Origin: a virus
IMG/VR virus record: IMGVR_UViG_3300020123_000246
Reading direction: 5' to 3' (one strand)
Length of the DNA stretch: 53,936 bases
Shown: positions 4,993-53,936 of the stretch, one piece after another
Layout: each line of letters begins with the position of its first letter
Position numbering within the stretch: the stretch's first letter is position 1
Notes under the pieces: model-generated
What the model saw: the letters and a program-made list of their open reading frames with translations, nothing else
Database searches by the model: none
Told to the model about the DNA's origin: nothing
Position numbers and translations under genes: made by a program

Positions 4993-5676
4993 ATGCAAGT
5001 CTCTATCGCCTGCAAACAGTGCGGGGCTCAGGTAGATTTTGAGCCGGACTCGCCGATACTCAAAATGGCCAATGATTACGGCACGTTCTGCGATGCCTGC
5101 ATGGCCACTCAGACCGCCTCGCCAGTCGAGCCGCATGTTCCCCGGATAATTCTCTACGCTACTATCTGCCCGCCCTGTTTCGAAGATACGCGGATCGCCC
5201 GATTGCCCTGCCAGGCCAAGAGCGAGCAAGCTATCAACTGGCACTACGGGCCCGATGGGCTCAACCTTTGGGGCGAGCCCGGTACCGGAAAGACTCGGAC
5301 CATGGGGATTCTCCTGCAGGGCCTCTTACAGCGCGGTTACAAAGTGGTTGCGTTTGGGCCAGGGGATTTCCGCCGGTTATGCGAGTCCAAAAACCACAAG
5401 CGAGGGGTGTGGCTTGAGCGGCTCTGTCAGGTCGACGTACTTTTCTTCGATGACTTGGACAAAATGAACCTGACCGCGGAGATGGAAAAAGACCTCTTCG
5501 CGGTGCTCACTAAAAGGATGGGACGCAAACCAGTCATGATGACCGGCAACGCTACCGCCAGAGGCATCGAGTACCAATTCCGCCTCGGTGAGGCAATGGT
5601 CCGGCGAGTACGGGACCACTGCCGCTCAATCCATTTCGCAAAAACAGACATAGACAACCAACCAGTAAAACCATGA
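4993..5676 (+). CDS. DnaC/IstB-like AAA+ ATPase with N-terminal Cys motifs
   Basis: Walker A GEPGTGKT, Walker B VLFFDDLDK, sensor MMTGNA; start chosen at ATG 4993 behind GAGG (ATGs at 4933 and 4975 are alternatives). Confidence 0.75.
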   Translation: MQVSIACKQCGAQVDFEPDSPILKMANDYGTFCDACMATQTASPVEPHVPRIILYATICPPCFEDTRIARLPCQAKSEQAINWHYGPDGLNLWGEPGTGKTRTMGILLQGLLQRGYKVVAFGPGDFRRLCESKNHKRGVWLERLCQVDVLFFDDLDKMNLTAEMEKDLFAVLTKRMGRKPVMMTGNATARGIEYQFRLGEAMVRRVRDHCRSIHFAKTDIDNQPVKP

Positions 5677-6829: not shown

Positions 6830-7545
6830 AGATCCTCCTCTGTTATATCACAGTCACCGGCGGCGCCAAAACGCTCGAGTACGCTCACCGGTTTGCCTGC
6901 ACGTACAGCCAGCACCCCCCGGGCTATCCGCACGATCAGGTAGTGGTGTGCAATGGGGGTCGACCGGCGCCGGAAATGGAATTCATGTACGGGATCCTCA
7001 ACAATGGTGCACGAATGCTGGTGAGAGAGAACGATGGCGGTTGGGACATTTCGGCGTACATCGAAGTGGCCAGGGACCTAGGCCAAGATTACGATCTAAT
7101 GCTCTGCCTCGGAGAGTCGATTCATTTCCATCGGTTCGGCTGGCTCCTCAGGCTAGTGGAGGCCTACCGGACGCACGGACCGGGCATGTATGGAGCATTC
7201 GCCAGCAACACTGTGCGGGCCCACATCAATACCACTGGCTTTGCCATCTCCCCGAGGTTTCTGGCCGAGTGGCCAACACCGGTTACCAACCGGCAGGAGC
7301 GCTACGATTTCGAGCACGGCGAGAATTCGATTTGGCGCCGGACTCAAGCCGAGGGTTTTCCAACGATGCTCGTTACCTGGGACGGCTTCTGGCACCCTCA
7401 GGCCTGGCGGGTACCGGCAAACATTCTCTGGCGAGGCAATCAGACCAACTGCCTCATGTACTGCAGTCATACCGATAACTGGTTTGCGGCCGATAAAGAA
7501 CGGCGAGCTCGCTGGCTGCGCATGGCGGACGCTCCTTTCCGATGA
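6826..7545 (+). CDS. Glycosyltransferase-like protein, paralog 1 of 3 (RgpF-like motifs)
   Basis: Aligns by eye with 8498..9160 and 10459..11178 (VVCNGG, NDGGWDISAY, FHRFGWLLRLVEA..THGPGMYG, HINTTGF, FEHGENS, VTWDG). Probable TTG start at 6826 in a TTGA overlap, matching the paralog N-termini (track ATG at 6799). Confidence 0.65.
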   Translation: MKILLCYITVTGGAKTLEYAHRFACTYSQHPPGYPHDQVVVCNGGRPAPEMEFMYGILNNGARMLVRENDGGWDISAYIEVARDLGQDYDLMLCLGESIHFHRFGWLLRLVEAYRTHGPGMYGAFASNTVRAHINTTGFAISPRFLAEWPTPVTNRQERYDFEHGENSIWRRTQAEGFPTMLVTWDGFWHPQAWRVPANILWRGNQTNCLMYCSHTDNWFAADKERRARWLRMADAPFR

Positions 7546-32869: not shown

Positions 32870-35800
32870 GTGCCAGTTGACTTCCTAGAGGCCCCGCTTC
32901 CGGAAACGGCGCCAGAGACGCCGGCTGCTACTCCTCCAATCCAGTTCCAGCCAGGCGGAATCGATTTTCTGCCCGCCGAGGAGATCGCAAAAAGTGCCGT
33001 CAATATCGGTGTTGGGCTCCCTCAGGCCGTTAATCGGCTCCTCACAAATCCGGCTGTAGCAGCATCCTCCGAAATGGGCCGAGCGGCTGCCCAACAGGAA
33101 AGGGCAGATCAGGAACGAATGCAGCAAGCCCGATACATTGCTGGCGCGGGCCCATCGGCCGGTTTGGCGTTGATACCCCCTGAGGCCACAAAACAGGCTT
33201 TGGCTTACGCGCCGACCATTCCCGGCCGGATGCTCAATGCTTTCATGCGGCAGGCGGCCATGGACCCGGGCACAGGCGTTCACCCGCCGACGCCGCAAGC
33301 CTTTGGTGAAACCGAGGCTGAGTATGAGCAGCGGAAGCAGTACCCAATGGGAGCTCCCGGCGAACCGCTCTACATACCGCAAACGGACAATCCAAGCGAC
33401 TTTCAGAAATTGGCGATGCAGGCCTCCACCATCAATGACCTGCTTGCCATTCCTATCGGGGTGACTCGCACCGGCGGCAAAGTGCTACTGGCCAGCATGG
33501 TCCCCGGGATTATTGGCCAGGTGAACGAGATTGCCACTGGCCCGGGTGATGCCAGGGATAAGCTCGAAAAGGCAAAGGCTTTGATTATCCCTGCAGCTAT
33601 CGGGGTTTTTGCTTCCCGACCTCGAGGCGCTCGCCTATTCCCTGAGCGGCTTGGTCCGGAGGCTGATATCGGTACCCCGGTTTATCCGCCCATGGAATTC
33701 AGTGGCGCCGCGCTCCCCGGCAGGCCTGCAGGAGCAATCCCTCGAGGCGGCCCGGCGGGTGTTGGCCCGGGCTACCCGATTGTCCCGCGTGCGGCCGAAC
33801 CGGTTGGCCCGCAATTCCCACGCCGCGGCGCGCCGATTGAGGTACCGGGAACGGCCGCCGGACCCGCACAAACTGTTCTCGAGGAGATCCGTGCCAATGA
33901 TGCGCGCACTATTCCACAAATTCAGGAGCTCTTTCCGCAACTCACTCGAGAGCAAGCTCGAGTCTATCGCAACCAAGTTTGGGGCGCCGCGGTTAGCGAT
34001 GTGGGTGTCCGAGTTTCGCCGGCCGTGCCGAGGCCTTCTCCGATGGGTCCTCCCACTCCGAGAGCCGAGGCGCCGCCGGAGGCTCCCAGGACCCCTACTA
34101 CTGAGGAGCAAATCGCTGCCCGAGAAGCTCCTGAGGTTGCAGCTCGCCGCTCAGCTCTCGAGCAGCAGATTATCACCTGGGAGCGAGAGCTCGAATTTGC
34201 TCAAAAGCGCGGAGATGCTCGAGCGCAGCAGGCGGCGGTCGATAAACTCCTCGAGCTCAGACGTCAATATGAGGGTCCTCAACCACCCGCCAAGCAACCC
34301 ATCACGCCTAAACAGCCGGTACCTGGCGTGCCTCGAGGCTCTTTCCCGCCTGAGGTACCAGCAACGGCCGCCCAACCGCGGGAAACTGTCCTCGCAGAAA
34401 TTCGACGGGCTAACGCTCGAACGCGCGCCGAAATCCAAAAGCTTTTTCCAGCTCGTAACCTCACGCGGGAAGAAGCTGCAGCACTGAGGGATCAGGCCTG
34501 GGGCAAACAACCGCCGGAAGAGCCACCCGCGGCACCGCCGGCAGCGCCAGCACCCAAAGAGCCTACCCCTCCCGCTCCTGCAGCGCCGTCAGCCGCAAAG
34601 CCGGAAATTGCAACGCGCTCAACCAGCCCGAACAATAACCCATTGGGCGATCCGATGGGGACTACCTATCACGCTACGCCTGAGGATTGGGCCCAATGGC
34701 AGAAGCTGATGGAGCAGCGCAAGGCGCTCAACTCAGACCCGAACAAGACTGTTCAACAGAAATTCCAGCAGGGCGCCGAGCTCAGCCAGGCGATCGAGGA
34801 CCTGAAAAACAAATACGGCGGGGCGCCGCCTAAAGAGCCAAAGGTCGGTGCTCCTCCTGTTACCGGTTCACCGGACGATCTTGTTCCTGCTCTCAAGCCA
34901 AAAGAGGGCGAAGTCATTCAGGGCCAAAAGGGCAACGTCCATGATGATATTTACAAAGCTCAGGGCGATATCGAAGGCAAGCTGCTCAGAGTTGGGCAAC
35001 CGGAGCACGGATTCTGGAACTCGAAGCTAAAGAAATTTCAGACGCGCGATGAAGCAGCAGCCTACCTGGGAGAAAAAGATCCGCTCCATTCCGAGCGGCT
35101 TATCGAGCTTCAAAAGAAGGTTGCGCCACCCGAGCCGACTGCAACGCCGGCAGCGGCCGCTCCACCTGCAGAGGCCCCGCCGGCGGCGCCGGAAAAGCCT
35201 AGCACGATCGGGGAAACCCCTCTCGCCGGCAAAACCCTTGGAGAGTGGGAAGCGGTCAAGGATGCCTCGCAACTTCCCCGAGGGGACGCGCGCGCCGAGC
35301 TCGCCAAGTATTTAGCGGTACCCAACCAGCCAAGCCGGATCCTGCAGGCCCTGGCCAACAAAAAGCGCACCCGCGAGATTCACGCGCCTCCGGCCGAGGT
35401 TGCACCGGTTCTATCAGGCGAACTCGCCTTGCGCTTTGGCGATTGGGGTCCTGATGGCAAATTGCATTACAGCAATAAAGTAATAGGGGTACCTTCCTTG
35501 GAAGATGCCGCCCGTAAATGGAATGAGATTCGAGAGAAGTCAGGAGCGGGAGCAAGCGAATCTCCGGTTGTAGTGGTCGTTAATACCAAAACGGGTGAAC
35601 ACGTAGCGAAGGTCAGTTACAACGGCAGATTATGGGACGCGCAAGGCAAAGAAATCCAGCCAGAGCCGAAAACCGCTAAGGCCGAGCCTACCGCACCCGC
35701 CGAAGCTCTCCCGCCAACATTGGCCAGTCTTTGGACTGAGTATGACGAAGGCGGGAAGATGACTGAGCGCGATCTCTTGCAACACGTTCTGAACATGGAG

Positions 35801-38800
35801 CCGGAAAATCTTCCACCGGCACTTGCAAGAGCAGCGGCCAAGTACCGAGATGCGGTTGAGGAAGATTTCAGCATGGCGGGCCGTGGTGATGTTGAGCCTG
35901 CTCAAGACCGGTTCATGGCCGAATTTGAGAAAGCGGCTGGAAAGGAAAAGCCGAAAACTGAAACGAAACCCGCCGAACCTGCAACACCTACTCCTGTTTC
36001 TGAAACGAAACCGCCTGTTAGTGCAACACCGGCGGCAGGGGCAGCCAAAGCGCAAGCCGAGGTCAGCAAAGTTGCGGCGACCGAAGGCCAGCGACCGGCG
36101 AAGGATGTTAAGCAGGATTTGATTGATGGGCTACAACAGGCGCTTATGAAAGCGCCGTCGAAAGAGGAAATTGACGCGGTTCAAAAGCCGGGCACGAAAA
36201 CCTTTGATGCCGATAAATGGCCAGAGGACAAACCGAAAACCGTAACGATTGACATTCCCGGCGATGGTGTTTTCACGGTTCCTAACACGATTGAGGCACT
36301 TTCCGAGGTACTGGATCGTGCTCGGAAATTAAAGACAGATGCAGGCAAACCTGAGAAGGTTTCGAAAAAAGCTATCAAGGCCAGTGAGGGAGCGATTCGA
36401 AAGACCGCTGGCACTACGCCTACCCCGGAACAGCCACCCTCTGACCTCGGCCCCACTGGCGGCACTGGCCCCGGCACTCCATCAGCAGAACAGGGCCCCG
36501 ATCCGGTTGTGCTCGACCTCAGGACCGGCAATCCGCTCTTCAATTCCCTACAGCGGAAGTACCAGAACTTTTTCACCGGGCTCAAGCAGCTCTGGACGCG
36601 CCATCCCGCCAAGCTCGATATCATGGGCTTGTCCAACGCGGCGAATAACCTTCCGCGGATTTACGGGCAGCAGGCCGGAAACTCCCTCAGGCTCGGCGCT
36701 ACCGAGGCCGATTTGAAAGCGGCGACCATGCTCATGCAGTCGCTCAAGATGAGTGGCGACGGCCTTTCGGTCGAGGATGCTGAGCGCCTCGGGAAGCTCG
36801 AGTTTGCTGACGACCCGCAAGGCTACCTCAGGGATAAAGAGAGCCAAATGTTCACCACGGCCCAACGCTTCCTCCACCAAGGCAAGAAGCTCGAGGCCGC
36901 GGCTGCTCTCGACGCACACCGGGCTTACAAGGATGCCGCGGACAATTTCAATCGCTTGCGTCCCCTGGCTGAGAGGGCCCGCCAGAAATTCGATCGCCAG
37001 TTTGGGCGGGAGCAAGCCTCAGGCCTGGATACCGCTTACGAGAATTGGTACGTGCCTCAACGTCACGATCTCGATCTCTTTGTCAGTCCCAATCGGCCGA
37101 TCGTGCTCGGCGATTCCAAAGGCGGCGGCGGCGCCCAATTCCGCAAAGCCAAGTTTTACGAGGACTATGCCAGCGCCATCGAGGCCGGCTGGATCCCTCG
37201 CTCTCTCAACATTGCTGACCTGCTCGAGCACCGGGTAGCTTCCGGCGAGCGCATGATTTTCAACAAGGGCTTCTTTGATCAGATGCGCAGTATCACTGAC
37301 CCGGTCGATCAACGGCCGGTTGTCATCGATATTCCCCGGCGCACCATTCAAATGCCGGATGGCACCACGCGCAGCCAAGAGTCAATCCCGCACGGTTATA
37401 CCAAGATGGAGGTCAGCCCAGGCGTAAACGTCGCAGTCCATGAGGGCTACTCCAGGCTGGTTAATGCGCTCACTGCCAGAAGTCAGCTCGCAGAGTCGGC
37501 GGTCGTGGGCACGCTGCAGGACATTGCCGCCGTCGAAAAGCATCTGATGCTGGCTCTGGATACGTTCCACCTGTCGCGCGTGCTCCAGGCCGAATTCTTC
37601 CTCACCGGCAAAGTCAGCCTCGGCCAGCGCCAGCGCATCGGCCGCGCTTTGGTCGAATACAGCGCCGAGGATTTCGACCGGGCAGTCAAGGCCGGCGAAC
37701 TCACTCAGGAGATGGTTGACTACATGCGCAAGCCGCAGCCCATGGAGGTTCACGGTAAGACGGTTAATGTGAGTCCCAAAAACCTCGTCATGTTCGGCGC
37801 CAGGCAGGGGCTCAATATCGGCCGCATCGGCGACGCTCTTTACCGCGATTGGCTGCGCAACATGCCGATCACCGGCGAGATAAACAAATTCGTTTTCGAC
37901 AAGGTTTCCCGCAGTGCAATCGCAAATGGCTTTCTCGCCGAATTTGAGCGCGTTGCCAAAGCGAACCCTGATCTCACCGGCGCCCAAGTGGCAAAGCAGG
38001 TCGCGCGCGATATCAACGTCCTCTTTGGCAATCTCCAAAAAGAGAGCATCTTCCGCAATCCTTCCCTGCGCTCGCTGACCCAAGTGCTTTTCCTGGCGCC
38101 GCAGTGGGTTGAATCTCTGGCCAGGCGTGAGACTCGAGGTGTCCTCCAGTTTGGCCAGGCTGCGGCCGATATCCCCAAAGCCATTTCCGAGGGCCGTCTG
38201 CCGCGTTTGGGCACCGTGGGTAAAGGTGTCGGTACCGCCCTGGCCGGCTACTTCGCCGGCACTCAGATCCTGAATCTGATAACCCGCGGCAAATTCACCT
38301 TCCAGAACCCGGAGGCGGGCCACAAGCTGGACGCCTGGATCCCCGGCGGGCAAAATGGCTTCTTCATTTCCCCGCTCTCGGTCTTTGGCGAGATCACCCA
38401 TGACATTCTGCGCTACGCCGAGACCAAACCCGACTTCGCTACTGCCGTCCAGCAAATCGGGATGAACAAGTTAGGGCCGCTCGGTCGGTTCCTCTACGTG
38501 CTCGCCAGCGGCCGGGACCCGATGACGGCTGAGAAGCTTGTCGGCACTGGCCGGCGGGCTACCCGCGCCGCCATGACTGCGGTACCGGTACCGATCACCC
38601 TTTCGCAGCCTTTGCGCCTGGCGGGCTCAAAGCTGGCCCCGGGAGTGATATCCCCGCCTGCCCCCGGCGCCGTCGAGCGACAGGGCCTGGCCTCCATCGG
38701 CTTTAAGACTGAGCCGGTCGGCACGGCCCAAAGCCAGATTTATCACTTGGCCGAGAAGTGGAAGAGCCAGTCAGGCAACGCCAAGTACGAGGCTGAGGTC

Positions 38801-39106
38801 GAGCGCCGGCTGAAAGAGGACTTTGGCCCAAGTGATTACCGGGATCTGCGCTCTGCTCTTACCCGGGACGATCCAAAAGCGGCGCGCGCGGCGTATCAGG
38901 AGCTGCGCAGTGAGGGAAAAACTCCCAAGACCATCCGGCAAACCTTTCAGCATCCCCATCCTTTCACCGGGAGCGGCCAGGCCGAGTCCGCTTTCAAGCG
39001 CACGCTCAGCGATGAGGACCGGGACCTTTACGATCGGGCCCTCGAGGAGCGCCGGGACCTCTACCGCAAGCTGCAGGAAATGTTACAATCAACTGAACCA
39101 GAATAA
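32870..39106 (+). CDS. Giant virion-associated protein (2078 aa), positional analogue of podovirus internal core/ejection proteins
   Basis: Single uninterrupted 6.2-kb ORF (GTG start); ~1100-aa P/A/E/K-rich N-terminal half with an internal duplication; more globular C-terminal half; no catalytic motif recognised. Confidence 0.6.
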   Translation: MPVDFLEAPLPETAPETPAATPPIQFQPGGIDFLPAEEIAKSAVNIGVGLPQAVNRLLTNPAVAASSEMGRAAAQQERADQERMQQARYIAGAGPSAGLALIPPEATKQALAYAPTIPGRMLNAFMRQAAMDPGTGVHPPTPQAFGETEAEYEQRKQYPMGAPGEPLYIPQTDNPSDFQKLAMQASTINDLLAIPIGVTRTGGKVLLASMVPGIIGQVNEIATGPGDARDKLEKAKALIIPAAIGVFASRPRGARLFPERLGPEADIGTPVYPPMEFSGAALPGRPAGAIPRGGPAGVGPGYPIVPRAAEPVGPQFPRRGAPIEVPGTAAGPAQTVLEEIRANDARTIPQIQELFPQLTREQARVYRNQVWGAAVSDVGVRVSPAVPRPSPMGPPTPRAEAPPEAPRTPTTEEQIAAREAPEVAARRSALEQQIITWERELEFAQKRGDARAQQAAVDKLLELRRQYEGPQPPAKQPITPKQPVPGVPRGSFPPEVPATAAQPRETVLAEIRRANARTRAEIQKLFPARNLTREEAAALRDQAWGKQPPEEPPAAPPAAPAPKEPTPPAPAAPSAAKPEIATRSTSPNNNPLGDPMGTTYHATPEDWAQWQKLMEQRKALNSDPNKTVQQKFQQGAELSQAIEDLKNKYGGAPPKEPKVGAPPVTGSPDDLVPALKPKEGEVIQGQKGNVHDDIYKAQGDIEGKLLRVGQPEHGFWNSKLKKFQTRDEAAAYLGEKDPLHSERLIELQKKVAPPEPTATPAAAAPPAEAPPAAPEKPSTIGETPLAGKTLGEWEAVKDASQLPRGDARAELAKYLAVPNQPSRILQALANKKRTREIHAPPAEVAPVLSGELALRFGDWGPDGKLHYSNKVIGVPSLEDAARKWNEIREKSGAGASESPVVVVVNTKTGEHVAKVSYNGRLWDAQGKEIQPEPKTAKAEPTAPAEALPPTLASLWTEYDEGGKMTERDLLQHVLNMEPENLPPALARAAAKYRDAVEEDFSMAGRGDVEPAQDRFMAEFEKAAGKEKPKTETKPAEPATPTPVSETKPPVSATPAAGAAKAQAEVSKVAATEGQRPAKDVKQDLIDGLQQALMKAPSKEEIDAVQKPGTKTFDADKWPEDKPKTVTIDIPGDGVFTVPNTIEALSEVLDRARKLKTDAGKPEKVSKKAIKASEGAIRKTAGTTPTPEQPPSDLGPTGGTGPGTPSAEQGPDPVVLDLRTGNPLFNSLQRKYQNFFTGLKQLWTRHPAKLDIMGLSNAANNLPRIYGQQAGNSLRLGATEADLKAATMLMQSLKMSGDGLSVEDAERLGKLEFADDPQGYLRDKESQMFTTAQRFLHQGKKLEAAAALDAHRAYKDAADNFNRLRPLAERARQKFDRQFGREQASGLDTAYENWYVPQRHDLDLFVSPNRPIVLGDSKGGGGAQFRKAKFYEDYASAIEAGWIPRSLNIADLLEHRVASGERMIFNKGFFDQMRSITDPVDQRPVVIDIPRRTIQMPDGTTRSQESIPHGYTKMEVSPGVNVAVHEGYSRLVNALTARSQLAESAVVGTLQDIAAVEKHLMLALDTFHLSRVLQAEFFLTGKVSLGQRQRIGRALVEYSAEDFDRAVKAGELTQEMVDYMRKPQPMEVHGKTVNVSPKNLVMFGARQGLNIGRIGDALYRDWLRNMPITGEINKFVFDKVSRSAIANGFLAEFERVAKANPDLTGAQVAKQVARDINVLFGNLQKESIFRNPSLRSLTQVLFLAPQWVESLARRETRGVLQFGQAAADIPKAISEGRLPRLGTVGKGVGTALAGYFAGTQILNLITRGKFTFQNPEAGHKLDAWIPGGQNGFFISPLSVFGEITHDILRYAETKPDFATAVQQIGMNKLGPLGRFLYVLASGRDPMTAEKLVGTGRRATRAAMTAVPVPITLSQPLRLAGSKLAPGVISPPAPGAVERQGLASIGFKTEPVGTAQSQIYHLAEKWKSQSGNAKYEAEVERRLKEDFGPSDYRDLRSALTRDDPKAARAAYQELRSEGKTPKTIRQTFQHPHPFTGSGQAESAFKRTLSDEDRDLYDRALEERRDLYRKLQEMLQSTEPE
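33818..33985 (+). repeat. Internal duplicated module copy 1 inside the giant gene
   Basis: PRRGAPIEVPGTAAGPAQTVLEEIRANDARTIPQIQELFPQLTREQARVYRNQVWG. Confidence 0.6.
34331..34504 (+). repeat. Internal duplicated module copy 2 inside the giant gene
   Basis: PRGSFPPEVPATAAQPRETVLAEIRRANARTRAEIQKLFPARNLTREEAAALRDQAWG. Confidence 0.6.
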
Positions 39107-43069: not shown

Positions 43070-43237
43070 TTATTCGAAGTCCCCGGGGTGCTCTTCTCTG
43101 TAGCAGTCGATGTAGGAGTCAATTCTGCCAGCGAGCTCCTCGAGGTACTCGAAATAATCGGTTCCTCTTAGAGGTTTCGCGTTTACGTCGATTGCTCTCA
43201 TCGCGTCCCTAACGGCTTTTTCAGTGGCTGGTGTCAT
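43070..43237 (-). CDS. Hypothetical protein (55 aa)
   Basis: Hand translation MTPATEKAVRDAMRAIDVNAKPLRGTDYFEYLEELAGRIDSYIDCYREEHPGDFE; ATGA overlap upstream. Confidence 0.4.
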   Translation of the reverse strand: MTPATEKAVRDAMRAIDVNAKPLRGTDYFEYLEELAGRIDSYIDCYREEHPGDFE

Positions 43238-44460
43238 AATCCGAGAGCTGCTCTTTCTTCCGGGGTGAGTTTGGCAAGCGCGGCTGCTCGAGGATCCTTC
43301 TCGAGGCCGAGGGCCTGGCGCTCTTCTGGCGTGAGCTTATCGAGCGCTGCCTCAGCCACTGTCTTTGCTGTCGTCTGTATCACCCCTTGCGGCGCTACGG
43401 CCGCCGGCGTCACATGCGCTTGGCGAACCGGCGTAATAAAGAACGGTTGGCCTTGTGCTGGTGGGCCCGCGGCGGGCTGGTTAGGTCCGCGCACCAAAGT
43501 TGGAATGCCCTCGGTAACCACTGTCTTACGAGTGCGCTGAGGCCCGTTGGTTGGCGCCGGCAAGAGTGGTGCCGCGGCGGGGACTGGCTGCGCTGCAGAT
43601 TGCGTGCTCGCATGATTGACGAATGCTTCAATCTCGATCTGTTGAGCCGGCTTATAACCATTGACCCATTGCCAGTGCTTTACCAGCGGAGCAAAGCCTC
43701 CGAAGTAGATCTCATCGAGATCCTCCTCATGCTCGCAGATGACAAACTGGCCTTGGTTGACGGTCGAGATATAGACGTTGCGCCGGATGATCGGCTTCTC
43801 TGGCTGGCCGGCCGCGCGCCGCATGAGCTGCCAGGCCTTGGCGTACGCGGCGAGCTGCAGCCGGTGTTCAGACCAGGCGCCGCCTTTGAGCGGATCCGGA
43901 AGGGTCTTGCTCCCTTTGTAATCGGTAATGCTCAAATGCGTTTCGAACTCTTGCATAAGATCGCATCGGCCGGCATACCCGTCGCCAACCAGGCCGGTTT
44001 CAGTGCTGATGACCTCGCCAAAAGCCATGATGGCCTCGAGGGCATCTTTCACCCAGGGGAAGATCTCCGCATCGATTTCCAAGCCTACTACGCCAGCCTC
44101 GATCGCGTCGTGAATTTGGTTGCCCTTGTCCCGGGCGATATCGCGCTCCTGATGCTGCTGTTGCTCGACCTGCAGGACGCGAGTAATAAAGACGTCATCG
44201 GCCTCGCCTGGCTGGCGCGGCGCCGTCACGACTGCCAGAACAGCTTGCTCAATCATCCAGTTTACCAGGGCCTCTTTGTGCAGAAGTTTTAGGATCCCGG
44301 TGACTGAGGGAAGGAGATTAAGCTTGCGCGCGTCTTTGAGGTTGGTAGATCGCTGCCCTTTCTTATCGGCACGGTCGACAACGTGACAGGCTTTGCCGTC
44401 CGTAAAATACCAGTGCGCTTCGTCTGAACTCTTAACTCTTGCGGCTGTAGGATTGCTCAT
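43234..44460 (-). CDS. PD-(D/E)XK (RecB/Cas4-like) exonuclease with Pro/Ala-rich repeat-bearing C-terminal tail
   Basis: GNQIHDAIEAG; GRCDLMQ...SITDYKGSK; HRLQLAAYAKAW. Confidence 0.7.
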   Translation of the reverse strand: MSNPTAARVKSSDEAHWYFTDGKACHVVDRADKKGQRSTNLKDARKLNLLPSVTGILKLLHKEALVNWMIEQAVLAVVTAPRQPGEADDVFITRVLQVEQQQHQERDIARDKGNQIHDAIEAGVVGLEIDAEIFPWVKDALEAIMAFGEVISTETGLVGDGYAGRCDLMQEFETHLSITDYKGSKTLPDPLKGGAWSEHRLQLAAYAKAWQLMRRAAGQPEKPIIRRNVYISTVNQGQFVICEHEEDLDEIYFGGFAPLVKHWQWVNGYKPAQQIEIEAFVNHASTQSAAQPVPAAAPLLPAPTNGPQRTRKTVVTEGIPTLVRGPNQPAAGPPAQGQPFFITPVRQAHVTPAAVAPQGVIQTTAKTVAEAALDKLTPEERQALGLEKDPRAAALAKLTPEERAALGL

Positions 44461-44481
44461 TTTGGTTTGGTTTGGTGTTTG

Positions 44482-44652
44482 TTAATTGCGGCTGTCATCA
44501 TGCTTCTTTTGCCGGCGGGCGATCCCTACCGCCAGGCCGCAAACCTTGTGCGCGCTCAGCGGCTTACCGCACTGGCTGCAGAGTGCTCCCGGTTTGGAGG
44601 TCTGGATCTGCAGGCTCTTAATCTTCTCGAGAAACTCTTCGAATTTGCTCAT
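44482..44652 (-). CDS. Hypothetical protein (56 aa)
   Basis: Hand translation MSKFEEFLEKIKSLQIQTSKPGALCSQCGKPLSAHKVCGLAVGIARRQKKHDDSRN. Confidence 0.35.
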   Translation of the reverse strand: MSKFEEFLEKIKSLQIQTSKPGALCSQCGKPLSAHKVCGLAVGIARRQKKHDDSRN

Positions 44653-44653
44653 A

Positions 44654-44866
44654 TCACATATCGACTGCTTTTTGCCGGCGCTGCAAGATGCCCTCTTTCA
44701 GGCATGCTCGCAGCCCTTCCGAGAGTAAGCGCTCGGCCGCGGCGGCGCGGCTGGTGCCATAGAACCCGGTTTCGACTACCCGATCGAGGACTTCAACTGC
44801 GGCTTGTGTGGTTGTTATCTGTATAACCACACTGTCAGAACCGCGCCGCGGCATTGAATTGGCCAT
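44654..44866 (-). CDS. Ribbon-helix-helix-like protein (70 aa)
   Basis: SVVIQITTTQAAVEVLDRVVETGFYGTSRAAAAERLLSEGL. Confidence 0.45.
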   Translation of the reverse strand: MANSMPRRGSDSVVIQITTTQAAVEVLDRVVETGFYGTSRAAAAERLLSEGLRACLKEGILQRRQKAVDM

Positions 44867-44892
44867 GCGTTTACTGTGCCGGTGCATTGCCG

Positions 44893-46365
44893 TTACATTG
44901 GAATATCATCGTCCTGACCGGCCGGGAGCTCTGGTTGAGCCTCAGCTTGGGTGTCCTGGCCGTGCTTTTCCTCCCACTCGAGGAACGCATCGAGGGCTTC
45001 GCGGAAAGTGAAATCCGACTGGGTTGGTTGGTAGGTGGTACCGTTATGCTCTCGAGGAGCTGGCGCCCAGTTCCTGGCCATTCCCCAAAGCCGCTTTTGG
45101 CAGGCCTCATCGCCTTCCTTCATGCCCTTGTAAAGGCTACCGATGGTATCGGGGTTTTGCTGGTACTCGGCGCGCTTCATCCCAGCCCGCGGGATAGGGC
45201 AGATGATATCAAAGAACCACTCCGGATCGCGAGACTTGGCGGCCTCGGCCCCCGGCGCCTTGGAGGTGGTTGCTGGCTTAGATTTGGGGGGGTCTTTCAG
45301 GTCGTGAGGCTTGAAAGCGTGCTCGGCTTTGCCCGTTTGGGTGAAAAGCTGGATTTTCTCCTCGAGGAGCTTCAATTCATCCCGACTCAAAGGGCAAAAC
45401 TCGAGCCCTAAGGCCTCTATCGGGTCCGTAGGCAGGAGAGCCGCCGGATTTACCAGGGCCCGATAATACGCAACCGCATGATTTAGAATCGGTTTGAGCT
45501 GTACAATGAGCCAGTTAAGCGTTGCTTGGCTGGCAAACTTGGGTTTCTGCTCGACCTTTGCGCCAGGCGTGACGCCAGTGCTCGCCGCTTGCACGCCCTG
45601 AGGCGTTTGGCTTGCCGCCGGTGTGGTTACACCCCCTGCGGCGGCCTGGGCGGTCCTAGAGCTCTTCTCCCTGAGCTTCCGCCGGGCCCACCAACCATTG
45701 CACCAGTCCTTTTTCCATGCCTGCAGGCCAACTCCGAGCTCTTTACAGCACCGGCGCAAGGCGGCCGTTTTGGCGCCCTCGACGGCATCGCCGTAGTTCT
45801 GACTGTTGTTGGAGGGGTAGTACTCCATTTCCCCTACCGCCTCGCCAACAAAGCAGCCCCTGATTACCAGCATTGCCTCGACGTAAACCCGGCTACCGCT
45901 CACGGCCGGCTTGCGCTCCCTGGCTGGAAGGGTGAAGGGCTCAGCCCATCGATTGCGCGGGACAATCGCCCATTTGCCCATACCGAAAACACTGGTGAGA
46001 CGTTCCCTGAGTGCAGCGTGCTCGATATAAATGAGATTCTCTTTGCCGGCGGCGCCAGGCTGGAAAGCCTCATCAGGGAAATCGGCTTTGAGCTTATCCT
46101 CCTCCTCGGGGGTGAGCTCGAGCTCTGAGGCGCGCTCATAGGCTCGCATGGTCAAAGCAGCGACGGCCTCAACTTTGGCTTGCGCCGCGGTTATCTGTGG
46201 CTTGGCTGGTTCAGCCTGGGGCCGGCGCTGCTCAAGGGCCATTTGGCGCGGCGGCGGCGCCTCCTCGGTTGTGGGTGGGTCCTGATCGATTGTCTCGGCT
46301 TCAATGGGCTCGTTTGTCATAGGAGGTAACGGGTGTTCGTAACAATATCTTGATAAATCAAACAT
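44893..46365 (-). CDS. Rad52/MGM101-like single-strand annealing protein with long C-terminal extension ending DDDIPM
   Basis: IYIEHAALRERLTSVFGMGKWAIVP and GEAVGEM...NYGDAVEGAKTAALRRCCKELGVGLQAW match the Rad52-family core; start ATG 46365 (alternative 46320). Confidence 0.7.
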   Translation of the reverse strand: MFDLSRYCYEHPLPPMTNEPIEAETIDQDPPTTEEAPPPRQMALEQRRPQAEPAKPQITAAQAKVEAVAALTMRAYERASELELTPEEEDKLKADFPDEAFQPGAAGKENLIYIEHAALRERLTSVFGMGKWAIVPRNRWAEPFTLPARERKPAVSGSRVYVEAMLVIRGCFVGEAVGEMEYYPSNNSQNYGDAVEGAKTAALRRCCKELGVGLQAWKKDWCNGWWARRKLREKSSRTAQAAAGGVTTPAASQTPQGVQAASTGVTPGAKVEQKPKFASQATLNWLIVQLKPILNHAVAYYRALVNPAALLPTDPIEALGLEFCPLSRDELKLLEEKIQLFTQTGKAEHAFKPHDLKDPPKSKPATTSKAPGAEAAKSRDPEWFFDIICPIPRAGMKRAEYQQNPDTIGSLYKGMKEGDEACQKRLWGMARNWAPAPREHNGTTYQPTQSDFTFREALDAFLEWEEKHGQDTQAEAQPELPAGQDDDIPM

Positions 46366-46633
46366 TTGGCAGCAAGGGCAGGACTGCGGCGTAGAGCTCG
46401 GCGGCGCTCCGCTCCTCGGCCTCCTGCCTTTCGTAGTCGCGCATGATTTCCTCGAGGACCTCGAGGGCTCGGCCTGGGGCTCCCATGCGGAGGAGCTCGG
46501 CCGCCTGGCCGGTAAGGCGCCGGCGCCGCTGTTCAGGTTGCTCAAAGCCGAACACTTCGCGGGCCTCAGCCAGGCGCGCGCCGATGTTGGCTTTCATCTG
46601 ATCTCTGATCAATCCCTGCGCTACGGTTGTCAT
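46358..46633 (-). CDS. Hypothetical helical protein (91 aa)
   Basis: ORF track. Confidence 0.5.
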   Translation of the reverse strand: MTTVAQGLIRDQMKANIGARLAEAREVFGFEQPEQRRRRLTGQAAELLRMGAPGRALEVLEEIMRDYERQEAEERSAAELYAAVLPLLPNV

Positions 46634-51810: not shown

Positions 51811-52258
51811 GGTCCTGTCGCTCGCCTGGGGTTACCCCTTTGGCCAACCTGCAAAAGGAATTGCCGCGTACCCGCATCGCGCAAACTCTGCCGGGGCGGA
51901 CAATCCCCGGCGTCGGATGTTGGATCTTCAAAGGAGGGCACACGGCAAAAAGCTGGTCGAGGTGATTCATGCGCAAAGAAAACTGAGCGTGCCGGGATTT
52001 GCCCGGACAACACACCCTCGACCAAAAGAGCAGCGCCAGAGCTAAAATCCCGTAGGACGGGTGCACCGAGTTGCCACAGGTGCCATCTGGCGCGACTGCC
52101 TGTTTGCAGGTTGCTCGGCAAAACCAGTGGTAGAGCCGCCCTTGCTTGAGGCCCACAGCGGGCCGAAAATCCCCTCGATCCGCTTCGTCCGCTTCGGCGC
52201 CTACCCTAACGGAAGGATATTTTAAGGCGATCCATGTGACACACGGATGAGGGAAAAT

Positions 52259-52389
52259 TGGCGAACACGGCCGGAATCGAACCGGCTTTCCCTGGTTACC
52301 CGGGTTATGAGCCCGAGGCGGGCGCACAGCTACACACTTACCTAGGCGGTGCGTAGTCTCACGAGAGCTGTCCATCTCTTGTCGTGCTC
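52259..52389 (-). ncRNA. tRNA-like element (initiator tRNA-Met-like anticodon arm, canonical T arm, encoded CCA, G3:U70), 131 nt with non-canonical insertions
   Basis: The minus strand reads GAGCACG-ACA-AGAG-AUGGACAG-CUCU-C, a 46-nt insert, then CUCGGG-CUCAUAA-CCCGGG-UAACCAGGGAAA-GCCGG-UUCGAUU-CCGGC-CGUGUUC-G-CCA. The 7-bp acceptor pairs GAGCACG with CGUGUUC. Confidence 0.5.
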
Positions 52390-52391
52390 GG

Positions 52392-52424
52392 AAAAAAAGT
52401 CCCCCGCTGTTAGCGCAACGGGGG
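52392..52424 (-). terminator. Rho-independent terminator immediately 5' of the tRNA-like element
   Basis: Minus strand CCCCCGTTG-CGCTAA-CAGCGGGGG then ACTTTTTTT. Confidence 0.75.
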
Positions 52425-52608
52425 GTTTGCCGGCAGAGTGCGACTCGACCGGCGGTTGTATTCGGCGAGGGAGGCCGAAATCCTTGACGGCTTACCCTCG
52501 CCAGCTCGCTAAAGCTGCAATTCATGATCGCTATTCCAAACCCAAATCAGGCGACCTGTGAAGCTTTATTTTTTTGAGTGCGCTTAACTCGCTGAGGTAC
52601 AGCGAGAT

Positions 52609-52628
52609 ATTTTTCCAGATTTTTCCAG
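52609..52628. repeat. Tandem 10-nt direct repeat (atttttccag x2)
   Basis: Read directly at 52609-52618 and 52619-52628. Confidence 0.9.
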
Positions 52629-52911
52629 AGCGGCACCCAAGCTCCGGATGCCGTTCTTGCCTTTTTGGCGTCGGGCAAAGGAATCGACCGCACCTCCAGC
52701 ATCGCCCTATGTCCTTAACATTCAAGCAGTCCAGAGGATTTCTATTTTGAATAAGAGGAGCATCAGACGGCAGCTATAGAGCCACCTGGCCGATGGCTTA
52801 TAACTGACTCGCCCTCCGGCAATGCCGATCACGGCGCAGATTTCGCGGTTTCGCCAGAGAAGCCAAGAAAAATGGAAGGCGTGAAATCTCATAAAATGTC
52901 CCTGATTTCCA

Positions 52912-53809: not shown

Positions 53810-53936
53810 AGTCTTGGTGTTGGGCGGCGGCAAGCGATGGTCCAAACCACTCAGGGATTTTGCTAAGCATAGAAGAAAAAGGCCCGGCCTCCTACCGGGC
53901 CCGAGAATCTGTTGGCTGGTCGAACTTAGTATGGCG
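53810..53936. repeat. Terminal direct repeat copy 2 (identical to 1..127)
   Basis: Read directly. Confidence 0.95.

Follow-up and report, generated by a model that had tools for sequence, protein, structure and literature searches.

The viral DNA analysed here, IMG/VR record IMGVR_UViG_3300020123_000246, is a stretch of 53,936 nt (referred to below, at its full length, as the window) and constitutes the whole genome of a phage, with a direct repeat of 127 bp at its ends (1–127 and 53810–53936). One of its regions, 1.1 kb in length (51811–52911), contains no convincing gene, and within this region, on the minus strand, lies a 131-nt tRNA-like element to which an earlier note, made from the sequence alone, had drawn attention. 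The element is more than a chance arrangement. Judged by the comparisons given below, it descends from a type of gene common in phages, the initiator-type tRNA(CAU) genes whose variable region is long, and has been remodelled to a structure of five helices.

Layout and tRNA ancestry of the element

Read from 52389 to 52259 on the minus strand, the parts of the element follow one another in the order GAGCACG-ACA-AGAG-AUGGACAG-CUCU-(46 nt)-CUCGGG-CUCAUAA-CCCGGG-UAACCAGGGAAA-GCCGG-UUCGAUU-CCGGC-CGUGUUC-G-CCA. These are:

52259–52389, minus: whole tRNA-like element, 131 nt with the encoded CCA (read from the sequence; the minimum-free-energy fold is closed by the acceptor stem)
52383–52389, minus: acceptor 5′ strand GAGCACG, pairing 7/7 with 52263–52269, including G3:U70 (pair probability ~1.0)
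52364–52379, minus: D-like hairpin AGAG-AUGGACAG-CUCU (read from the sequence; pair probability ~0.42)
52318–52363, minus: 46-nt insert at the D/anticodon junction (position 26), with an 8-bp hairpin inside
52356–52330, minus: insert hairpin CUACGCAC/GUGUGUAG, 8 bp, with CCUAGG in the loop (predicted probability ~1.0)
52299–52317, minus: anticodon-type hairpin CUCGGG-CUCAUAA-CCCGGG, with CAU at 52309–52307 (read from the sequence)
52287–52298, minus: variable region UAACCAGGGAAA, 12–13 nt, a length that fits the phage long-variable-arm tRNA(CAU) class
52270–52286, minus: canonical T arm GCCGG-UUCGAUU-CCGGC (pair probability ~1.0)
52263–52269, 52262 and 52259–52261, minus: acceptor 3′ strand CGUGUUC, G73 and encoded CCA (read from the sequence)

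The description given in the earlier note was borne out in every sequence feature that it names. The acceptor stem is composed of six Watson-Crick pairs and G3:U70 (G at 52387, U at 52265) and is followed by G and an encoded CCA, the T arm is canonical, the CAU arm has U33, A37 and three G:C pairs beside its loop, and both the D-like arm with GG in its loop and the 46-nt insert are present. In the acceptor, D, anticodon and T arms 22/22 stem pairs are intact in the sequence, and both conserved loops (CUCAUAA and UUCGAUU) are canonical. The D-like hairpin, for which the register GAGA/UCUC is as possible as AGAG/CUCU, shows a purine11:pyrimidine24 pair and carries GG in the loop after just two loop nucleotides, and a linker of 3–4 nt (ACA or ACAA), without U8, stands in place of U8-N9. 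The variable region, recorded earlier as 13 nt and as a departure from the standard cloverleaf, has this length with a 5-bp anticodon stem and 12 nt with a 6-bp stem, and it is no oddity, being normal for the phage tRNA(CAU) class. When compared with a canonical tRNA, the top half is thus complete (7-bp acceptor stem, 5-bp T stem, UUCRANY loop, discriminator and CCA), and the core lacks the U8-N9 linker, the canonical D loop and the single nucleotide 26, in place of which 46 nt separate the stems.

Standard gene finders do not report the element: ARAGORN at its default settings found 0 tRNA and 0 tmRNA genes in the window, and Rfam at gathering thresholds gave no match for it. A relaxed-threshold ARAGORN call covered precisely 52259–52389. 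In E-value mode, the Rfam tRNA model (RF00005) scored 22.6 bits (cut-off 29) over 52262–52339, with E=0.058 for 4227 families, and this partial match borrows a poor, wobble-rich substitute acceptor strand from within the insert. Model R2, constructed from 33 long-variable-arm tRNA(CAU) genes of phages, had a single match in the window, which covers the anticodon arm through the T arm (52270–52316; 34.1 bits, E=8e-8). Both the Rfam tRNA model and R2 aligned the anticodon-type hairpin at high posterior probability. Moreover, deletion of 45 nt (GUGAG...CCCGC) yielded an 86-nt tRNA-Met(cat) at ARAGORN default thresholds; this deletion test is permissive and, on the tRNA-like genes of loci L060 and L080 described below, proved too permissive for locating an anticodon. 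In the window genome, a 7-mer able to pair with CGUGUUC (allowing at most one G:U) is expected by chance 0.075 times per 150 nt, and the chance expectation for such a 7-mer together with an adjacent D-like hairpin is 0.007. The folding z-score of the whole element is -2.64, and the acceptor, T and extra hairpins are predicted with pair probabilities of ~1.0. The partial Rfam match and the R2 match argue for tRNA ancestry, and the low chance expectation, the fold statistics and the outcome of the deletion argue that the 5′ strand is part of the unit. The characterization of the element as tRNA-derived and yet not a standard cloverleaf therefore stands, since it is rejected by ARAGORN and Rfam, is called as tRNA-Met after deletion of the insert and is matched by R2.

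Several features relate the element to initiator-type tRNAs. The 16-mer core of its anticodon arm (UCGGGCUCAUAACCCG) equals the consensus of initiator tRNAs (33 phage initiator-like genes), and 61–63 of the 86 positions of the insert-free element agree with phage long-variable-arm tRNA(CAU). The likeness to phage initiator-like tRNA(CAU) genes comprises this core, the purine11:pyrimidine24 pair, the 12–13-nt variable region and the T arm, and the GAGA/UCUC D stem recurs in several of these genes. In contrast, the acceptor strand of the element is GAGCACG, and that of the class is NGCGGGG; five pairs differ, yet pairing is perfect. The element departs from initiator-type tRNA(CAU) also in its insert of 45–46 nt at position 26, the 3–4-nt linker without U8, the combination of G1-C72, G73 and G3:U70, and the lack of an ARAGORN or Rfam call. 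The initiator character that had been claimed for it is consequently partial: the G:C triple 29-31:39-41, the CAU anticodon and purine11:pyrimidine24 are all there, but the 1x72 mismatch and A73 are replaced by a Watson-Crick G1-C72 pair and G73.

The suggested alanine identity is likewise incomplete. G3:U70 is present, but the usual Ala discriminator A73 is replaced by G, and the one plausible homologue has G3-C70 instead. This homologue is a 94-nt tRNA-like gene (L080, 7084–7177) with the acceptor GAGCGCG/CGCGCUC and the T arm GCAGG/CCUGC, in which pairs 5-68 and 51-63 carry compensatory changes relative to the window. GUAACC precedes the T arm in both, and the centre of the L080 gene is unrelated.

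With regard to the wider class, 46 distinct initiator-like tRNA(CAU) genes were found in many unrelated phages (IMG/VR loci L001–L059). Their variable arm of ~12–20 nt forms a hairpin, often with a GNRA loop, and gives them a class-II-like shape that is atypical for bacterial initiator tRNAs.

The small RNA and the cassette around the element

The element is located directly behind a conserved small RNA, designated here sRNA1. The features of this part of the genome are:

52392–52525, minus: sRNA1, ~134 nt, upstream of the element, with homologues in the related phage contigs L060, L067 and L091
52424–52401, minus: hairpin of the sRNA1 intrinsic terminator, followed by seven U and ending 2–3 nt before G1 of the element
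52533–52562, minus: putative sigma-70-type promoter of sRNA1 (TTCACA, 18 nt, TGGAAT), read from the sequence
52173–52583, minus: swappable non-coding cassette of ~410 bp (promoter, sRNA1, terminator, element and ~85 nt more)
L060 5291–5435, L067 4677–4824 and L091 1976–2119: sRNA1 homologues

Three hairpins, of which the terminator is the last, and a conserved single-stranded stretch (CCGAAUACAACC) make up sRNA1, and 11 of its pairs show compensatory changes among three sequences. No Rfam family matched it, a search of the phage genome gave no convincing seed target for this stretch, and model R1 found no second sRNA1 copy downstream. In two of the four phages a tRNA-like gene lies 3′ of sRNA1. 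The second case is L060, where a 155-nt Ser-like tRNA-shaped gene (5027–5181, minus) was observed ~110 nt downstream of the sRNA1 homologue. This gene scores 37.5 bits against the Rfam tRNA model and is missed by ARAGORN; it has a perfect acceptor stem, a canonical class-II Ser-type D arm and a T arm, with ~86 extra nt in the anticodon/variable region and no 7-nt anticodon loop.

The putative promoter of sRNA1, which a generic promoter scan did not flag, is the sole candidate promoter upstream of the tRNA-like element; at the same site L060, L067 and L091 have TTGAC(A/G/C), a 17–18-nt spacer and an A/T-rich hexamer. No promoter-like site was found between sRNA1 and the element. The observation that the element starts right after a terminator was thus correct, but one of the two suggestions based on it, that the element is independently transcribed, finds no support: lack of its own promoter, together with a start that abuts the terminator of a conserved small RNA, makes read-through followed by processing more likely than independent transcription.

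In a close relative, L128 (found via a spurious 254-aa open reading frame (ORF) that overlaps the element), ~215 unrelated nt replace the cassette, and the flanks are ~90% and 97% identical. Furthermore, homologues of a neighbouring 102-aa protein occur on contigs of <1 kb with different upstream modules. The element is accordingly part of a mobile, swappable non-coding cassette.

Next to the cassette, a non-coding block (52050–52172, minus; L128 375–480) is ~97% identical between the window and L128, which exceeds the conservation of the adjacent protein gene. It ends with a terminator-like hairpin (52061–52049), and a further small RNA, made downstream of the element, may be encoded here. 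Another relative, L135, differs in sequence from the window over this block.

The 53.9-kb genome has 2 copies of the palindrome CCTAGG, where its length alone would predict ~13, and one of them (52341–52346) lies within the loop of the element's extra hairpin. The same hexamer was noted in the L080 tRNA-like gene (at 7125) and in the replacement cassette of L128 (at 235). Its sharing could be due to chance, or could be the mark of loop-loop pairing or of a restriction-related feature.

The genome as a whole is highly divergent and yielded few PHROG or Pfam matches. A 2078-aa ORF (32870–39106) and a recombination module (43234–46545), consisting of a Mgm101/Rad52-type annealing protein and a PD-(D/E)XK exonuclease, were recognized. 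Related terminases number in the hundreds in metagenomes, and none was found in 185,579 reference genomes (GTDB).

Possible roles and fates of the element

The interpretation that we put forward, tentatively, is that the element gives rise to a processed, stable tRNA-like RNA which does not decode normally. Its expression, processing and stability we infer. Having no promoter of its own, the element would be transcribed by read-through from the sRNA1 promoter, RNase P would free it by a cut at G1, and 3′ exonucleases would trim it to the encoded CCA; these enzymes need only the top half formed by the acceptor stem and the T arm. The product would persist as a stable tRNA-shaped RNA, with its function in the top half and/or in the displayed anticodon-type hairpin. 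Two functions are candidates, namely punctuation that helps to process or stabilise flanking small RNAs, and the binding of tRNA-recognising factors; the RNA would have no role as a regular decoder. The 22/22 intact stem pairs argue against simple decay, and the rejection by ARAGORN and Rfam, the non-canonical linker and D loop, and a predicted probability of ~0 for the anticodon hairpin indicate that this is not a normal tRNA. The Ser-like gene of L060, the L080 gene with the family to which it belongs, and T4 rnaC (the latter two described below) are parallels that favour the interpretation.

This hairpin is perfect in sequence (6 bp, 7-nt loop); a fold that competes with it, more stable by 5.7 kcal/mol, has both strands of the CAU hairpin paired elsewhere, and in one part of that fold (CCCGG-GUAA-CC-A-GGG) the variable region pairs with the 3′ strand of the anticodon stem.

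A number of observations weigh against the proposed stable RNA. A function confined to the top half would leave the perfectly kept sequence of the CAU hairpin unexplained. The insert alone is no better folded than shuffled sequences (z=-0.18), and the strong terminator directly upstream would limit expression. In addition, the element is a singleton. The same architecture was found neither in IMG/VR nor in the 185,579 GTDB genomes, and no such element occurs in the related phages gathered via the terminase (47 IMG/VR loci and 14 contigs from other sources). As the closest relative, L128, is without the element, the comparison offers no evidence of covariation or of selection, and hence none of the compensatory conservation that the earlier note had named. 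The pattern searched in IMG/VR (25–55-nt insert, GAGM/KCTC D stem and initiator anticodon arm) gave 4 matches, all of them ordinary tRNAs with chance upstream matches; exact 22–23-mers spanning T loop and acceptor had no match in the GTDB genomes or in IMG/VR, and a look-up of the window's own ORF did not find a second contig.

The main rival explanation, to which we assign a smaller though appreciable likelihood, is a decaying phage tRNA(CAU) gene, functionless and nearing loss, which was broken up when 45 nt were inserted and small indels arose. Of the readings offered in the earlier note, a processing signal and a degenerate tRNA are thus both still plausible. Such decay would account for the singleton status and for the absence from the closest relative despite conserved flanks, in a region that is a mosaic of swapped non-coding modules. 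It would also agree with an insert whose folding energy is no better than random, with the non-canonical core (no U8, a 3–4-nt linker and an altered D loop), with rejection by tRNA finders, with the position behind a terminator without a promoter, and with a predicted fold that disfavours the anticodon hairpin. However, random decay should strike stems too, and here 22 base pairs and both canonical loops are intact. The acceptor stem, moreover, differs at five pairs from NGCGGGG, which is highly conserved in the presumed parent class, and still pairs perfectly, and no near-identical intact parent tRNA was found in GTDB or IMG/VR. Were the element merely a decaying gene, it would be a routine by-product of phage tRNA gain and loss. 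That it could instead be a working tRNA with an extra arm, either an elongator Met tRNA reading AUG or a tRNA charged with Ala via G3:U70, we consider rather improbable; in a variant of this proposal, it might be a replacement escaping host nucleases that cut the initiator or Met anticodon loop. The acceptor stem, the T arm, the CAU loop with U33 and A37, and the encoded CCA are intact, removal of the insert leads to the default ARAGORN tRNA-Met call, and unusual long-variable-arm tRNA(CAU) genes are common in phages. Against decoding stands the 45-nt hairpin at position 26, which occupies a hinge of the tRNA that must flex during decoding, and also the absence of U8 and of canonical D-loop spacing, and the near-zero probability of the anticodon hairpin. 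For the irregular tRNAs of soil bacteria translation competence is possible (PMC5389517), and G3:U70, the main AlaRS determinant, directed Ala insertion by irregular allo-tRNAs (PMC7609411), but those five-stem-junction allo-tRNA(UAU) species that were tested proved inactive in E. coli translation (Mukai et al., PMC5389517). In the element, G1-C72 and G73 depart from the initiator and the Met/Ala identity sets, and G3:U70 is not kept in L080.

Removal of 45 nt restores a cloverleaf, and non-canonical tRNA intron positions near 25/26 occur in some archaea, so a tRNA with a removable intron (of the archaeal bulge-helix-bulge type, or group I/II) was also considered; it is largely refuted and hardly credible. 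No bulge-helix-bulge motif exists at the insert boundaries (27/72), with 4 motifs anywhere as compared to 7.5 +/- 3.9 in shuffled sequences; 45 nt is far too short for a group I/II intron, of which Rfam gave no match; and the phage looks like one of bacteria, with intrinsic terminators, a sigma-70-like promoter, and relatives that encode GroES and RF-1-domain proteins. Phage attP sites often carry the 3′ part of a tRNA gene, but it is just as improbable that the element is an attP site with part of a host tRNA gene, since both tRNA halves are present and the genome in the window is complete, its ends being marked by the 127-bp repeat. Among the scanned ORFs there was no integrase or recombinase, and the 22-nt string from T loop to acceptor matches none of the 185,579 genomes. 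The remaining readings, such as a tmRNA-like RNA, share a small remainder of likelihood. The affinity to tmRNA implied by the earlier note is not supported by the ARAGORN and Rfam tmRNA models, the best result being an 11.8-bit T-loop match to permuted tmRNA (cut-off 47) and the relaxed ARAGORN tmRNA calls being spurious; moreover, there is no tag reading frame or pseudoknot, nor room for them. A mobile repeat as the source of the insert was rejected on its single occurrence, as neither the window nor the 1.4 Mb of retrieved loci contained a second copy.

Similar phage genes and known tRNA-like RNAs

Scanning with a T-arm/acceptor string retrieved 74 IMG/VR loci with at least 32 distinct elements, which were grouped into a Leu-like family (L136–L209; the L080 gene is also a member). 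Its elements are 82–234 nt in length (e.g. L169 7234–7315, L137 6486–6624 and L175 2588–2821) and are composed of a 5′ block with acceptor and D arm (GAGCGCG-UG-GCGGAAUGUAAAGACGC), a hypervariable centre of 28–180 nt, and a 3′ block with T arm and acceptor (UGCAGGUUCAAAUCCUGC-CGCGCUC-A, often then CCA). The centres are no more structured than shuffled sequences (mean z -0.66), and the neighbouring genes vary. Most of these elements are missed by tRNA finders, only some score above the Rfam tRNA cut-off, and no Rfam family matches them beyond weak tRNA matches. A literature search returned no paper with sequences of this family, and nothing on phage tRNA-scaffold RNAs. The family may represent an undescribed family of such RNAs.

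The element of the window resembles this family in being phage-encoded, in its remodelled centre, in the acceptor GAGCRCG/CGYGCUC and in the T arm GCNGG-UUCRAWU-CCNGC. The similarity of the 3′ part, however, is imposed by the search pattern, and the first 27 nt of the element have a profile score of -16.1 and no nhmmer match, with agreement of the 7-nt acceptor strand only; on account of this mismatch in the 5′ block the family is treated as an analogue and not as the element's own family. Unlike the element, it is without a CAU hairpin.

It is conceivable, if doubtful, that the element, the Ser-like gene of L060 and the L080-type Leu-like family exemplify one undescribed strategy, in which the tRNA top half serves as a host-processed, protected scaffold and the bottom half holds variable functional modules. 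Under this scaffold proposal, the module of the window would be the initiator-type anticodon hairpin plus the extra hairpin with its palindromic CCUAGG loop, and it might serve either as a regulatory RNA or as a decoy that draws off anticodon nucleases or initiation factors. The top halves resemble those of Ala, Ser and Leu tRNAs, whose synthetases ignore the anticodon, which hints that the RNAs might be charged. Phage genes that keep the tRNA top half and have the rest remodelled would amount to a wider phenomenon missed by tRNA finders, with a bearing on the phage use of host tRNA processing, on incomplete phage tRNA counts and on initiator-tRNA decoys. This broader class, in which the tRNA top half is conserved and the centre varies, may be a more valuable lead than the singleton element.

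Among known RNAs, species 1 RNA of phage T4 (rnaC, 139 nt) is comparable: it is phage-encoded and of similar size, a stem between its two ends closes it, as in the element, and it has a canonical T arm (CCGGG-UUCGAAU-CCCGG) near the 3′ end, with long internal hairpins in place of the normal arms. There is no sequence homology between the two, and rnaC has neither an anticodon-type hairpin nor an encoded CCA. It sits in the T4 tRNA cluster, whereas the element sits behind a small RNA. T4 rnaC is co-transcribed and processed with the neighbouring RNA genes, and it has no known function.

The tRNA-like domain of tmRNA shares with the element G3:U70, the T arm, the encoded CCA and a tRNA body interrupted by extra sequence, and differs from it in lacking an anticodon-type hairpin. 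Irregular, five-stem-junction allo-tRNA-like RNAs of soil Acidobacteria are tRNA-derived RNAs of unknown, possibly non-translational function (PMC5389517, PMC7609411). They resemble the element in having an extra fifth stem or loop, in G3:U70 (in some of them) and in being missed or mis-scored by finders, but they have 8/4 or 9/3 acceptor/T arrangements and Ser-type long variable arms (PMC5389517), while the element is 7/5 and phage-borne. In the polycistronic tRNA1 group, the extra loop lies between the acceptor and D stems, and that of the element between the D and anticodon stems. The element is thus moderately unusual and real, with precedents among irregular tRNA-like RNAs, and, provided that the RNA is made and stable, it would add a phage example to the small set of non-ordinary tRNA-shaped RNAs to which T4 rnaC and the allo-tRNA-like RNAs of soil bacteria belong.

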